Shown: positions 1 to 60,531, counted from the first letter of the stretch. The stretch is DNA of 60,531 nucleotides from a virus (IMGVR_UViG_3300005294_000016:1-60531); one strand, 5' to 3'. Made by a program: numbers and translations. The notes: generated from the sequence alone by a model not told the origin.

Positions 1-125
1 GTGGTAATTCTGGTGTCGGGTAGGCGACAGAACACTTGGCGAATCCGTGTTTTCCCTGGACCCTGGTCTTGCACCGGTCACAGCGACCGGACAGGAGAGA
101 GGAAGTGGTGGGGATGGGGACGGTG
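1..125. repeat. Inverted repeat R1, copy at window start (identical to revcomp of 7801-7925)
   Basis: 125 bp exact match to revcomp 7801-7925; contains a hairpin (CCGGTC/GACCGG), the RBS AGGAGAGAGGA and the first codons MGTV. Confidence 0.97.
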
Positions 126-884
126 GAGCACAAGCTCAGCAAGGCACAGCGGGAAGCAATCGTGGCCATGGGTGACATGGGCATCATCCGTAGCAACCTT
201 GGTGGCGCCATGGGTGTTGACCTAGAGTGCCCCCCGGTAAACGGGCGTACCCTAGCGGTACTTGAACGCGAGGGTTACGCAATCCGCATCGGTCACGGAC
301 CGTGGCGCCTACGGCTTAAGGGTGTTCGGGAGTACGACCGACTGACCGGACACACTGCGGACAACGCGAACAAGGGTGCGGTGGACCCGATCGACGCGAC
401 CCCGGTTGAGTCGCCTCAGGTAGTGAAGGACTGTTTCGGCCGTGACGCCCTGGTGGTCACGGTTGATGGGCGCACCTACACCGTTACGTCCGTGGACGAG
501 TTCGGAGCCATCCGTACCGCCGAGGGTGCCACGGTCAACCCTGGCATGGTTGCCGAGCTTGACGCGGCGGTGTTCCAGTCGGGTCTGTGGGCTTTCGCCC
601 GCAAGGTGTCCTCCTCGTGTCAGGCACCTGCCGGAGCCGCCGATGAGATCAGCAACCTATCCCCGGGCGCGATCGAGATGCTTGGGGAGCTTGTGTTCGC
701 CGACCTCCGTGCCCGTGGGTACGACATCGTTGGCGTTGCGGCACCTGTCCCGACTGCCCAGGACGTCTCGGCGATGGTGGGCGACCCGGTGGGCTGGTTC
801 GCTGGTCTGATCGCTGCGCCGATCCGCACGAAGCTTGCGAAGCGTAAGCGGAAGGCGGGTAAGCGTCATGCGTTCGCGCGCTGA
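114..884 (+). CDS. hypothetical protein
   Basis: Long ORF with strong RBS inside R1; start moved to ATG 114. Confidence 0.75.
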   Translation: MGTVEHKLSKAQREAIVAMGDMGIIRSNLGGAMGVDLECPPVNGRTLAVLEREGYAIRIGHGPWRLRLKGVREYDRLTGHTADNANKGAVDPIDATPVESPQVVKDCFGRDALVVTVDGRTYTVTSVDEFGAIRTAEGATVNPGMVAELDAAVFQSGLWAFARKVSSSCQAPAGAADEISNLSPGAIEMLGELVFADLRARGYDIVGVAAPVPTAQDVSAMVGDPVGWFAGLIAAPIRTKLAKRKRKAGKRHAFAR

Positions 885-1017
885 TTGGGAGCGGTGGGAG
901 CGGGAGTTCAGGGGTGCTGAGCGGGTGTGGATCACCCGCGATGCGCGTACGCAGACGATTACGGTTTCTGACCAGTACGGCGGTATCGAAATCCGGACGA
1001 TGAAGGGCGGTAAGTGA
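868..1017 (+). CDS. small hypothetical protein
   Basis: Short ORF filling the gap; stop overlaps next start. Confidence 0.5.
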   Translation: MRSRADWERWEREFRGAERVWITRDARTQTITVSDQYGGIEIRTMKGGK

Positions 1018-1265
1018 TCATGGGAACTGTCCAGTACGTGCACAGGTGCGGGAATGGTCTCGGCGTGTCCGTGATCCCCGACCGTGAGCTATACGAGATC
1101 GCGGTGATCCACTTCTACGGGCCGGGGGATGACGATTTCGATCTGATCTATGACACGCCGATCACGGGCGATGTCCTTCGGGGACTGACGGTAGGAGAGG
1201 TCAACGAGGTCATTCGGCGCGTTGCGGAGCTTCCGCACCGTCCTTACGCACTGGAGAGTGAGTGA
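1014..1265 (+). CDS. hypothetical phage protein
   Basis: GTGA-coupled ORF; globular-looking sequence (GxGVSVI...LYEIAVI...TPITGDV). Confidence 0.75.
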   Translation: MIMGTVQYVHRCGNGLGVSVIPDRELYEIAVIHFYGPGDDDFDLIYDTPITGDVLRGLTVGEVNEVIRRVAELPHRPYALESE

Positions 1266-1609
1266 TCATGGGTAAGCGTTACGCGGCCGAGATCGAGTAC
1301 GTCAAGGGCGCGTACATGATCGACCTTACGGATGCCCTTTACGACGCGGGACACCCCGACGCTGACCAGGCGTACGCGGTCATGATGATCACAAAGAACA
1401 TGCTGGCCATGCGTGCCGAGATGGCACGTGACATTGCGTACATCGCCAAGTATTCGGCCCTCGCAGTCAGCGAGCCGGACAGTCTCCTGTCGTCGACGTT
1501 CGCCAGCGTCCAGAACACCTACTCAAGGCACGAGACAGCGGCCGCTGTGTGGCGTGAAGCGCTTGACTTTGCCGTCCTCCCGATTCAGCGAAAGAAGGTC
1601 CTGCCATGA
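1262..1609 (+). CDS. hypothetical protein
   Basis: Coupled ORF, RBS GGAGAG. Confidence 0.7.
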   Translation: MIMGKRYAAEIEYVKGAYMIDLTDALYDAGHPDADQAYAVMMITKNMLAMRAEMARDIAYIAKYSALAVSEPDSLLSSTFASVQNTYSRHETAAAVWREALDFAVLPIQRKKVLP

Positions 1610-1830
1610 GTTACGAAATGCTGCGCATGCTGGCGTCGGGCACCCTCGTTGCCTTGATCTACGGGGTCGGAATCGTGATCGCCGTGGGCATCAACGGCGG
1701 TCCCGTGATCGGTCCCGCACTGGCGGGGATCACCGCTCCGGTACGCCGTCCCAACCGGTCCACGGGACGTCACCGGGCGTCGGGGACGGCTAAGCGCATT
1801 CACGTGTTCGGGGGTGCCCATCGTGCCTGA
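1606..1830 (+). CDS. small membrane protein
   Basis: ATGA-coupled; N-terminal hydrophobic helix. Confidence 0.6.
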   Translation: MSYEMLRMLASGTLVALIYGVGIVIAVGINGGPVIGPALAGITAPVRRPNRSTGRHRASGTAKRIHVFGGAHRA

Positions 1831-2236
1831 GGAGCTTCCCCCGGTGGCTGAGTGCGTCACTCAGGTGTACTCCGATGACCAGGGAGGGTGGTGGCGCTAC
1901 TGCCTCACGTGTGATGACGGATCCAACAAGCACCGCCGTCACATCCGGGGACGCCAGGGTGAGAAGGACGCCCTGGTGTCGGCCCGCGATCACGCGGAAG
2001 CTAAGCGCAAGTACCGGATCATGTTGCGCGATTGGTTCATGTGGCGTGACGCGGTGATCGAAGCTACGGGCACCGGGGATTGGGATGCGTTCCTTGAGTT
2101 GGGACGCCAGCGTTTCCCGCGCAACTGGGCACCGGAACCGGTACAGGGTGCCGCCGAACGCGCCGAACGGATGCGTTTCGTTCACGAGCAGTACACAGCG
2201 ATTCGAGAGAGGGACACTCGGCAATGGAGATCCTGA
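1814..2236 (+). CDS. hypothetical protein
   Basis: Operon-packed ORF with a CxxC motif. Confidence 0.65.
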   Translation: MPIVPEELPPVAECVTQVYSDDQGGWWRYCLTCDDGSNKHRRHIRGRQGEKDALVSARDHAEAKRKYRIMLRDWFMWRDAVIEATGTGDWDAFLELGRQRFPRNWAPEPVQGAAERAERMRFVHEQYTAIRERDTRQWRS

Positions 2237-59030: not shown

Positions 59031-59215
59031 CAGATCACCTGTCCCCGCTGGTTCATCTGCCGCAGGGACTCAGCGATGGCCAGCAGCGCATACGTCTGGG
59101 CTTCCGCCAACTTAGTGGAGATGATCCGGGTGTCGGCACGGTCCGGTGCCTCGTCAAGGATCTCGTATGCCGTGTTGATGCAGGCATCCACGTTGATCTT
59201 GATCGACCTAGGCAT
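59030..59215 (-). CDS. hypothetical protein
   Basis: AQTYALLAIAE motif; coupled. Confidence 0.65.
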   Translation of the reverse strand: MPRSIKINVDACINTAYEILDEAPDRADTRIISTKLAEAQTYALLAIAESLRQMNQRGQVI

Positions 59216-59660
59216 CGCAGCCCTCCCCGGTCACCATGGTCCCGTACGGCAGCAAATCCATCGCCTCCTGGATCCGGTTCAGGGAACCGTTGATCCGCGC
59301 CAGCACCCCCAACGCCCGGAAGTCGGCGATATCCGCAAGTTCCGCGACAGCGGCACGGAAGTTCGGCATCTCCTCATGCAAAGGATGGAACAGTGTCGCC
59401 GCCTCATCGGTGCGGACGTTGATCTCGTGGGCCAGGTGCAGGACCATCGACGGCAGCGCCCCCATGGTCATCGAGAATACCGCCCGCGACAGCTCAGCAC
59501 TCAGGCGCCCCAGATCCTCCACGTCCCCGTTGTGCTGGGCGTCGTGCATCGCCAGGGCCAGGTTCGCGAAGCCGCCCACGGCTTCCTTGAACTGGTCACG
59601 GAGCATGCCCGTCGCGACATCGATGAACTGCTCGTTCTCCTGCTCACTGAACTCGCTCAC
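59208..59660 (-). CDS. hypothetical helical protein
   Basis: Coupled 150-aa ORF. Confidence 0.7.
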   Translation of the reverse strand: MSEFSEQENEQFIDVATGMLRDQFKEAVGGFANLALAMHDAQHNGDVEDLGRLSAELSRAVFSMTMGALPSMVLHLAHEINVRTDEAATLFHPLHEEMPNFRAAVAELADIADFRALGVLARINGSLNRIQEAMDLLPYGTMVTGEGCDA

Positions 59661-59878
59661 TGCTTGGTCTCCTCATCCTCACTGTCGACCTGGTTCAGGA
59701 ACTTGTTGAAGTCGCGGGCCAGGTAGCCCGCCGTCCCCGTGAGCACGGCCGCCACGAGCACCCAGTCCCATGGGGCTGGGATCTTCGACACGGCCCAGAA
59801 TGCGACGCTGAGCAGGACGTACAGGACTGCGACGACCACGGTCGACACGGCCACACTGATGATCTTGTTCTTCACCAT
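59657..59878 (-). CDS. two-TM membrane protein
   Basis: Two hydrophobic helices. Confidence 0.6.
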   Translation of the reverse strand: MVKNKIISVAVSTVVVAVLYVLLSVAFWAVSKIPAPWDWVLVAAVLTGTAGYLARDFNKFLNQVDSEDEETKQ

Positions 59879-60189
59879 TCCACCTTCTGCTTGACCGGCT
59901 CCGGGTAGAACCGGTGTTCCAGTGCCGCCACCCATAGCGGCTTGCTGTGCTCCTGGGCAGCCCAGGTCCTGCTGACCAGCTCACCCCGACAGGATGCCGA
60001 GGTTCCGAACCCTGCGGCTGTGGACTGCTGCGCCCGCCAGAATCCGCGCTCAGGAAACCACTCGTACGTGATCTCCAGAACCTGGGGCTCGAACTCGTAG
60101 AACTTGCCGTGATCCTTGTTGCCCCACAACACCCTCTCCTTGCCGGTCACGTCGAGGGCCACGATCGTCGTGATCTTGCTGATCTTCAC
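59872..60189 (-). CDS. hypothetical protein
   Basis: GTGA-coupled, RBS GGAGG. Confidence 0.6.
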   Translation of the reverse strand: MKISKITTIVALDVTGKERVLWGNKDHGKFYEFEPQVLEITYEWFPERGFWRAQQSTAAGFGTSASCRGELVSRTWAAQEHSKPLWVAALEHRFYPEPVKQKVEW

Positions 60190-60401
60190 GGCGCCTCCGG
60201 ATACTCGACGACCCGCCAGTGGGTCACCGCGTCGTACCCCACGTCCGGCGTCCAACGGAAGCCGTCCACGGTCCACAGGGAACCGTCGAACCATCCGAGC
60301 CCCGTACGTCCGGACTTGGTGTGGACATACACCCACATGTGCCGGGGCGCTCCGAAGTCTCCCCGGAGCCACCCGTGCTTGAACCCGATCTCCTCCGCCA
60401 A
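60186..60401 (-). CDS. DUF551-like small protein
   Basis: Ends VTHW....P.AP; TTG start right after the RBS in R2. Confidence 0.6.
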   Translation of the reverse strand: MAEEIGFKHGWLRGDFGAPRHMWVYVHTKSGRTGLGWFDGSLWTVDGFRWTPDVGYDAVTHWRVVEYPEAP

Positions 60402-60531
60402 CTCCCTCTCTCCCTCTTCACCCTTCCGGTATGCGGTGCGGATCGTCGTGCCGCACCCAACGAGAACCCTACCATCCCGATGCGACACTTGACTATGTGT
60501 CCTGGCTCACTTTGCCCAGGATGCCCAGGGT
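60402..60531. repeat. Inverted repeat R2, copy at window end
   Basis: Revcomp of 9690-9819. Confidence 0.97.

Follow-up and report, generated by a model that had tools for sequence, protein, structure and literature searches.

A Collapsed 2-kb Inverted Repeat and a Quadripartite Genome Map in an Uncultivated Soil Phage, with a Similar Layout in Its Relatives

The stretch of DNA analyzed here, termed the window, is a whole IMG/VR virus record (IMGVR_UViG_3300005294_000016), a single contig of 60,531 bp that is classed as linear and has a CheckV completeness estimate of 100%. The window is nearly the whole genome of an uncultivated soil phage, a tailed phage with a G+C content of 62% that is most like phages of Actinobacteria; the sequence-bearing runs carry the label soil metagenome. 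Both ends of the contig recur in inverted orientation at the borders of an internal block. Positions 1-125 are 100% complementary to 7801-7925 (125 nt) and positions 60402-60531 to 9690-9819 (130 nt), as detected by a repeat search and by a BLAST comparison of the record with itself, and both matches extend to the contig ends. No 31-mer occurs twice in the window outside these two matches, indicating that they are not part of a repeat background. A first-pass annotation had reported the matches and had interpreted them as the remains of a ~2-kb inverted repeat collapsed by assembly, with closure at 62,295 bp. The matches were reproduced exactly, and the arithmetic of the closure holds (60,531 bp plus the 1,764 bp of 7926-9689). 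The map consists of a small segment of 7.7 kb, the repeat of 2,019 bp, a large segment of 50.6 kb and an inverted repeat copy, amounting to ~62.3 kb, and its parts fall on the contig as follows.

1-125: stub of the second inverted repeat copy at the small-segment end, cut by the contig end; reverse complement of 7801-7925.
126-7800: small unique segment, 7,675 bp.
7801-9819: inverted repeat, 2,019 bp, with two copies in the genome and one in the contig.
9820-60401: large unique segment, 50,582 bp, with replication, structural, lysis and early genes.
60402-60531: stub of the second inverted repeat copy at the large-segment end, cut by the contig end; reverse complement of 9690-9819.

Genes run inward from both ends of each unique segment, as the annotation had stated. 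Gene calls based on the G+C content of third codon positions (GC3) placed plus-strand genes at 36-3117 and 9733-12736 and minus-strand genes at 3380-7890 and 51288-60488. The genes of the small segment are small and of unknown function; their only family matches were to phrog_4239 and phrog_3906, for both of which the function is likewise unknown.

Logan contigs (k=31) of four runs, X1 to X4, were placed on positions 1-14000. X1 is the probable source run, and X2 comes from another library of that sample, a very small one. In X1, the block 7801-9819 was exactly covered by one unbranched contig of 2,019 nt with a depth of 357.5. A contig of 7,735 nt (depth, 114) covered 96-7830, that is, the small segment flanked at either end by 30 nt of one and the same repeat end. 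On the large-segment side, a contig of 6,019 nt (depth, 196.9) began at 9790, and another of 8,760 nt (depth, 207.4) began with 9790-9819 and continued into the reverse complement of 60372-60401. All four junctions between repeat and segments were present in X1, and the contigs and end matches together indicated that each unique region is linked at its two ends to a single end of the repeat. The same junctions were detected in X2, with depths of 12.8 for the block, 4.3 to 4.6 for the small segment and 5.1 to 6.25 for the large segment. The unbranched block, its excess of depth over both segments and the four junctions supported a ~2-kb inverted repeat collapsed by assembly, and the linkage of the contig ends into the inverted block that the annotation had predicted was observed in the X1 contigs, which join both segment ends to the repeat. 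As the repeat formed a single unbranched contig, its two copies are identical at k=31 resolution. Short-read assembly merged both copies, leaving the stubs of 125 and 130 nt at the contig ends.

The annotation had also considered that only short cassettes of 125 and 130 nt are duplicated and that a single-copy block (7926-9689) lies between two independently invertible segments. The contig itself duplicates these 125 and 130 nt only, and their unequal lengths are as in natural short repeats. Such an arrangement requires onefold depth over the block and branch points at 7925/7926 and 9689/9690; the X1 contigs contained neither branch point, and the block was instead the unbranched contig at 357.5, contradicting this possibility. 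Furthermore, no invertase gene was found in six frames, and the end stubs of two related genomes, G004 and G013 (described below), also map 1.2 to 1.4 kb apart on one block. Duplication of short cassettes alone is, in our judgment, very improbable.

The repeat depth of 357.5 is approximately the sum of the segment depths (114 + 202, ~316), as would be expected if each copy is flanked by the small segment on one side and by the large segment on the other. An artefact of assembly, either a chimera in which two phages or elements with 2 kb in common were joined or an inverted chimera due to amplification, would be in keeping with the metagenomic nature of the record and with the different depths of the unique segments. 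However, two separate replicons with the repeat at both ends are unlikely, because these would need a repeat depth of ~2 × 114 + 2 × 202 = 632 and not 357.5. The second library contained the same junctions, and the layout was found again in at least 14 further assemblies, which derive from other samples and have repeats of unrelated sequence. An artefact was, therefore, judged to be highly unlikely.

Relatives of the phage were found by means of the head protein, and 31 records were fetched whole and each compared with itself. A set of 21 records shares PrimPol, exonuclease, TerL, portal and head protein with the window at 24 to 54% identity. The signature of the layout was a contig end that is exactly the reverse complement of an internal stretch 3 to 58 kb away, and it was detected in 10 of the 21 PrimPol relatives (G004, G005, G008, G011, G012, G013, G015, G017, G022 and G029), while a direct end overlap was detected in 0 of 21. 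Among distant relatives without PrimPol, the signature was present in 0 of 7, and 4 of 7 were ordinary circles with direct overlaps of 123 to 139 nt. A scan with the repeat-encoded protein described below added the signature in four viral contigs and one metagenome contig. The layout, which the annotation had proposed to look for in related genomes, occurs in related phages, in at least 14 further assemblies from other samples.

Both borders of the repeat were defined in G004 and G013. G004 had the signature at both ends, with a repeat of 1,172 bp (57155-58326), a small segment of 5.6 kb and a large segment of 57 kb. In G013, where the left end matched too, the repeat measures 1,407 bp and the small segment 4.8 kb. 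Across the clade, small segments ranged from 3.3 to 7.7 kb, large segments from 50.6 to 57.9 kb and the repeat, where both borders were known, from 1.2 to 2.0 kb. The orientation of the small segment in G004, G005 and G013 is uninformative about isomers because an assembler picks either path. The layout is conserved and the sequence is not: no counterparts of the small-segment proteins of the window were found in the 21 relatives. Retention of the layout while the sequence varies argues against an artefact and for selection, and its conservation in a deep clade with a PrimPol primase-helicase makes selection for it probable, with a connection to replication, packaging or early expression. At the large-segment end of the repeat, the relatives have a G-rich motif followed by GAGGGTATG, with an RBS (ribosome-binding site) and an ATG, and the border lies a few codons past that ATG. 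A separate observation concerns the small segment of one further contig (L181:1806-5953), which contains approximately eight direct repeats of 80 to 100 nt, 86 to 100% alike and several hundred nucleotides apart; such an array was seen in no other small segment.

Runs X3 and X4 contained low-depth relatives only, and the sole informative junction was a loose end at 10068. In X3, which holds a close relative (95 to 99% identity) from another soil, a sequence resembling the last 26 nt of the repeat was joined directly to 10068. This strain skips 9820-10067, indicating that the repeat border shifts between strains, and it seems to be without the first gene of the large segment.

Two of the relatives with the signature, G008 and G017, have ends that match each other over 127 and 130 nt and are placed by IMG/VR in the class "inverted terminal repeats" (ITR). 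G029 and G017 have identical proteins in the region that they share, and G029 continues through the repeat into a 3.3-kb small segment. G008 and G017, hence, probably lack the repeat and the small segment, and some of the genomes of this kind that catalogues class as linear or ITR are probably the large segment plus stubs of assembler length, without the repeat and small segment. Catalogue labels such as "linear" or complete "ITR" can hide the layout. The CheckV paper states that only 33.2% of ITR contigs reach high quality. True ITRs, in which the repeats are the physical ends of the molecule, were considered for the window and rejected, as its repeat continues into unique DNA at both ends.

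The repeat contains two genes pointing in opposite directions and signals for translation that face outward at both ends.

7801-7833, minus strand: outward RBS and start codons GTG, GTG and ATG for the first gene at either small-segment end, by reading of the sequence.
8620-9012, plus strand: repeat-borne gene A, 130 aa, three predicted helices, directed toward the large segment.
9042-9431, minus strand: repeat-borne gene B, 129 aa, function unknown, directed toward the small segment; GC3, 0.82.
9440-9720: non-coding region with an octamer cluster, a 32-nt imperfect inverted repeat and a pyrimidine tract.
9794-9819, plus strand: purine-rich, RBS-like outward end on the large-segment side, by reading of the sequence.

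The repeat end that faces the small segment includes the RBS (~93-104) and the start codons GTG105, GTG108 and ATG114, with the boundary directly behind codon 4. Two different genes, hence, share their first four codons (MGTV), with the same 125 nt preceding two coding continuations. The statement of the annotation that each repeat boundary falls at an RBS or start codon stood for this side; on the large-segment side, the repeat ends in the RBS-like run, and the starts were ambiguous, the candidates being GTG at 9733 (within the repeat), minus-strand TTG at 60401 and ATG at 9874. The four transcription units may, on this reading, start from identical signals, and the repeat appears to be a two-faced cassette for expression and regulation.

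Approximately 690 nt of the repeat interior is without a convincing gene. Four of the six copies of the octamer TTGCCCAA in the window lie at 9472-9646, where 0.89 would be expected by chance, and the imperfect inverted repeat (I4, 32 nt) pairs 9514-9545 with 9628-9659. The cluster is iteron-like, "origin-like" being a description of the pattern only. The 12-mer GGATGCCTGGGC was not enriched, with 15 matches against 9.1 expected, and a promoter and terminator scan of the repeat gave nothing above shuffled sequences.

The proteins of the repeat were then compared across the clade. Neither gene A nor gene B had a Pfam or PHROG match. Homologues of gene A, at 91%, 88% and 49% identity, were found on contigs of 946 to 2,655 nt, and its AlphaFold2 model (mean pLDDT, 67.5) had a three-helix pattern. 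The only database match of gene B was its own protein. Pattern scans of viral contigs with both proteins of the window gave no matches. In the relatives, a conserved protein of ~110 to 125 aa is encoded inside the repeat of G004, G005, G011, G013, G015, G022 and G029, and its gene also lies near a contig end in G012, G014, G016 and G027. The gene points to the large segment wherever both sides are known, and in each of the 16 viral contigs retrieved with the protein it was ≤6.8 kb from a contig end. At an E value of ≤0.001, a library clustered at 50% identity contained 192 representatives of the family, which matched no Pfam family above the cutoff. The model of this protein was confident (mean pLDDT, 90) with a generic three-helix fold; no significant structural match was found by Foldseek against PDB (none at an E value of ≤0.001) or in BFVD, and a tblastn search of cultured phages gave no match. 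Contigs bearing the protein were short (median, 1.94 kb; 53 of 80 at ≤2.6 kb), which fits a repeat node, although no control gene was included and this distribution was not taken as evidence. As gene A shares the place, orientation and three-helix pattern of the clade protein, it is a possible counterpart and was not counted as a member of the family. A longer and weaker homologue of the family (E value, 1e-14) was observed in two distant relatives without PrimPol (G018:7824-8591 and G019:8320-9087), one of which is an ordinary circle, indicating that the family also exists outside the inverted-repeat layout.

Enzymes that might act on the repeat were searched for in six frames of the window. 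The serine recombinase family PF00239 gave no match at an E value of ≤1, the same search having matched 13 of 14 known genomes, and the tyrosine recombinase family PF00589 gave none at the same threshold (control, 14 of 14), although a very divergent enzyme could escape detection. These results bore out the annotation, which had recognized no site-specific recombinase. No match to the protein-priming family B polymerase (PF03175) or to the family A polymerase (PF00476) was found in any frame. A site-specific switch or a linear genome of the phi29 type is, therefore, unlikely. The general recombination genes of the phage are the exonuclease and RusA; the protein encoded beside the exonuclease (16536-17132) had no match in a PDB sequence search.

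The best explanation overall, to which we assign a probability of roughly 85%, is a quadripartite map of ~62.3 kb in which the repeat is an expression cassette, its copies are kept by recombination and the layout is conserved across the clade. The copies would be kept identical by homologous recombination or gene conversion, through the phage exonuclease and RusA resolvase or through host functions, with no site-specific recombinase encoded. The sharp borders at the first codons may be points at which conversion tracts are stopped by selection on the differing coding sequences. The same exchanges would, as in plastids, change the orientation of one segment with respect to the other. Each outer repeat end would provide an RBS, together with a start codon on the small-segment side, so that four units would share signals. 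The molecule may be circular and flip-flop isomers may exist, while amplification in the style of the 2-micron plasmid, which the annotation had suggested, would be speculative.

Several observations weigh against this explanation. The ratios of depth are not 1:2:1, as the repeat in X1 has 3.1 times the depth of the small segment and 1.7 to 1.8 times that of the large segment; of the depth check that the annotation had set, the excess of the block over single-copy depth was found and the clean ratios were not. The ratio of the small segment to the repeat-proximal large segment was 0.57 in X1 and 0.82 in X2, each depth being one mean per Logan contig and the large segment being gauged only in its repeat-proximal 6.0 and 8.8 kb. 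No read or contig crosses an entire repeat copy, as the repeat exceeds the k-mers and contigs at hand, and copy number (2 or 3), circularity and isomers were, therefore, not observed. Two full copies were present in 0 of 80 metagenome loci and in no stored viral contig. X1 is probably the sample of the contig itself and, hence, is not independent of the assembly. DNA matches between the repeat of the window and five relatives were at chance level only (18 to 45 nt). The genes of the small segment run mostly in one direction in G004, G015 and G029, indicating that inward transcription from both ends is not a rule of the clade. The similarity of gene A to the clade protein is weak (hhalign P = 6.5e-4; probability, 27%), and the hidden Markov model of the family finds nothing in the window, gene A included. 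Finally, a promoter scan detected no sigma-70-like site in 7500-10200, the consensus saying little for such a host. Contig breaks in X1 near 15.8 kb and 51.7 kb were unexplained by repeats within the window, and nothing was concluded from them.

The imbalance of depth could reflect a mixed population, in which all genomes share the repeat and the adjoining large segment and only ~60% carry this small segment, the remainder having another cassette or none between the repeat copies. The depths of 114 against 197 to 207 in X1, and of ~4.5 against ~5.5 in X2, are of this kind. No other part varies as much across the clade as the small segment, both in size and in its proteins, those of the window having been found in 0 of 21 relatives, and the joining of repeat-end-like sequence to 10068 in the X3 relative indicates that borders vary between strains. 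However, the imbalance was smaller in X2, and no contig with an alternative cassette at the small-segment border was present among the X1 records listed (8 of 12), in which one <90% alike would be undetectable. A mixed population is, hence, a possible explanation and one that we would not favor.

An unequal depth would also be produced if the repeat were a module for the initiation of packaging, with the small protein acting as the small terminase, a pac site in the repeat and packaging proceeding outward into the large segment. The virion DNA would then be linear, with a terminal redundancy that takes in the repeat and the next kilobases of the large segment, a proposal that refines the two-copy arrangement. 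With equal use of both copies, depths of 1.5 times (large segment) and 3 times (repeat) that of the small segment are predicted; those observed were 1.7 to 1.8 and 3.1 in X1 and ~1.2 and 2.8 in X2. The constant direction of the repeat-borne protein toward the large segment is in agreement with packaging, as is the lack of a recognized small terminase beside TerL, where the upstream open reading frame of 65 aa had no family match. Two weak leads point the same way: several BFVD entries named "terminase small subunit" (best E value, 0.11; none significant) and one language-model neighbor in a T5_Terminase_small cluster (score, 0.91; 138 shared features). Against this, a terminase small-subunit family in Pfam was matched by 0 of 102 members of the conserved protein family at an E value of ≤1, Foldseek gave nothing against PDB and the fold is generic, gene A of the window is a doubtful member, and the middle of the large segment, where the depth would be decisive, lies outside the repeat-proximal contigs gauged. 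We consider a packaging module to be unlikely. A similarly doubtful extension would be that this clade of soil phages has a plastid-like genome in which the repeat is a duplicated start module combining early-expression signals, a protein like a terminase small subunit and a pac site or origin; early transcription and packaging would then run outward from either copy, and general recombination would flip the segments and could yield concatemers as in the 2-micron plasmid.

The quadripartite map was compared with known systems. Plastid genomes consist of a large single-copy region, an inverted repeat (IR), a small single-copy region and a second IR, and exist as flip-flop isomers. The phage map is similar in that two identical inverted copies split a small and a large region, the ends of a region join the same repeat end, short-read assembly merges the copies, no dedicated recombinase was found and the repeat border shifts between relatives. 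It differs in belonging to a virus of ~62 kb, with a clade repeat of 1.2 to 2.0 kb, no rRNA operon and outward RBS and start signals, and in that its isomers are only presumed. In herpesviruses of class D, a unique short region is flanked by inverted repeats, with two isomers, and in these viruses and in the yeast 2-micron plasmid recombination between inverted repeats flips the unique segment between them. The flanking of a unique segment by inverted repeats is shared with the window, an analogy that the annotation had drawn. In contrast, no FLP-like or other site-specific recombinase was found in the window, and no packaging signals are known at the repeat ends. Amplification by fork reversal, as in the 2-micron plasmid, would be speculation by analogy.

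The invertible G segment of Mu and C segment of P1, which are acted on by the serine invertases Gin and Cin, have repeats of 34 and ~600 bp (as quoted in bioRxiv 10.64898/2026.10.21.760668). In these systems, as in the window, the genes at the two segment ends are directed inward, and a common leader lies outside the segment. The window differs in having no serine recombinase by the PF00239 search, a repeat of 2 kb and border genes that are small and of unknown function; a tail fiber identity for these border genes was not obtained from PHROG scans, the only test made.

Phage segments that are flanked by inverted repeats and invert have already been reported in two 2026 preprints. The first concerns Anabaena cyanophages of the A-1(L)/N-1 group, in which a conserved region of ~30 kb lies between inverted repeats of 400 to 700 nt and both orientations were detected in one stock by PCR and read mapping; Supplementary Table 6 of that preprint lists further IR-bearing phages, which may be relevant to the spread of the layout (bioRxiv 10.64898/2026.02.14.705889). 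These are also tailed phages split by long inverted repeats, of which the position is kept and the sequence is not; no recombinase has been identified in them, and the same concern about assembly artefacts applies. Their repeats are shorter, their segments are of similar size and their isomers have been demonstrated, whereas the soil clade has a repeat of 1.2 to 2 kb, a small segment of 3 to 8 kb and a repeat-encoded protein with start signals, and is known from sequence alone. The core genes are not close to those of cyanophages, the head protein of a Pseudanabaena phage being 32% identical. The second preprint describes the Burkholderia jumbo phage Matilda, with a linear genome of 267 kb in which a "bidirectional" segment lies at either terminus, bounded by inverted repeats of its own (1.5 and 18 kb), and contrasts Matilda with temperate phages that carry invertible segments (bioRxiv 10.64898/2026.10.21.760668). 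Matilda and the window are alike in having graph segments that attach by both ends to one repeat, repeats of kilobase length and a structure that is hidden by single-contig workflows. Matilda differs in having a core with two distinct units of repeat and loop, while the window has one repeat with a loop on each side, no core and a genome four times smaller.

Full-text literature searches found no report of this kind of layout, either for phages of Actinobacteria or for the present clade. What is new here is a clade-wide trait of abundant soil phages, that of one short repeat with a loop on each side; neither a conserved small protein encoded by the repeat nor repeat borders that fall in the opening codons of the neighboring genes have been described before. 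If true, the clade provides a tractable case for why viruses keep such repeats, whether for replication, packaging, doubled early expression or as a site for swapping accessory genes.

The identifiable genes of the window, all in the large segment, include the following.

12768-15428, minus strand: PrimPol/D5 primase-helicase.
17164-18063, minus strand: exonuclease of the PD-(D/E)XK type.
21077-21862, minus strand: ThyX.
23970-25406: TerL (large terminase).
25611-27623: portal protein.
31605-33395: major head protein.
48651-49298, minus strand: endolysin.
51557-51952, minus strand: RusA resolvase.

Further genes of the window encode a major tail protein, a head-tail adaptor, tail proteins, a dCTP deaminase and a helix-turn-helix regulator. 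An Rfam scan of the window detected tRNAs only. The tRNA genes lie in a cluster just upstream of the terminase gene (22924-23617) and at 18314-18388; Rfam counted five and ARAGORN four (Met, Glu, Gly and Phe), without the 87-nt one at 22924-23010. The closest cultured phages infect Actinobacteria and are distant, with ≤40% identity in the head protein and 24 to 37% in PrimPol, portal and TerL. The top head-protein match among cultured phages was phiAsp2, which has a different gene order and shows no inverted repeat in its annotation, which was consulted without a self-comparison of the genome. A DNA search of 6500-11500 against the phage collection gave zero matches.

The major head protein comprises 596 aa, of which the matches to cultured phages span only residues ~150 to 590; the N-terminal extension of ~150 to 190 aa is common to the uncultivated relatives. 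A tail fiber-like gene (phrog_16641; 36812-38584) and its neighbor (35789-36802) are both on the minus strand amid a plus-strand structural module. Among the 21 relatives, only G006 has a counterpart of the former, and 0 of 21 have one of the latter. Adjacent small paralogous genes were found at 52008-52884, where phrog_572 was matched twice and direct repeats D1 and D4 lie at 52156-52449 and 52598-52885, and a second pair was found at 19772-20613 (phrog_18295 and phrog_8206). Both pairs are local tandem gene duplications. The phage was present at 114- to 207-fold depth in X1, a run of 4.7 gigabases labeled soil metagenome, and made up a large share of the 0.8-megabase run X2, an abundance that is unusually high for a single phage in soil.

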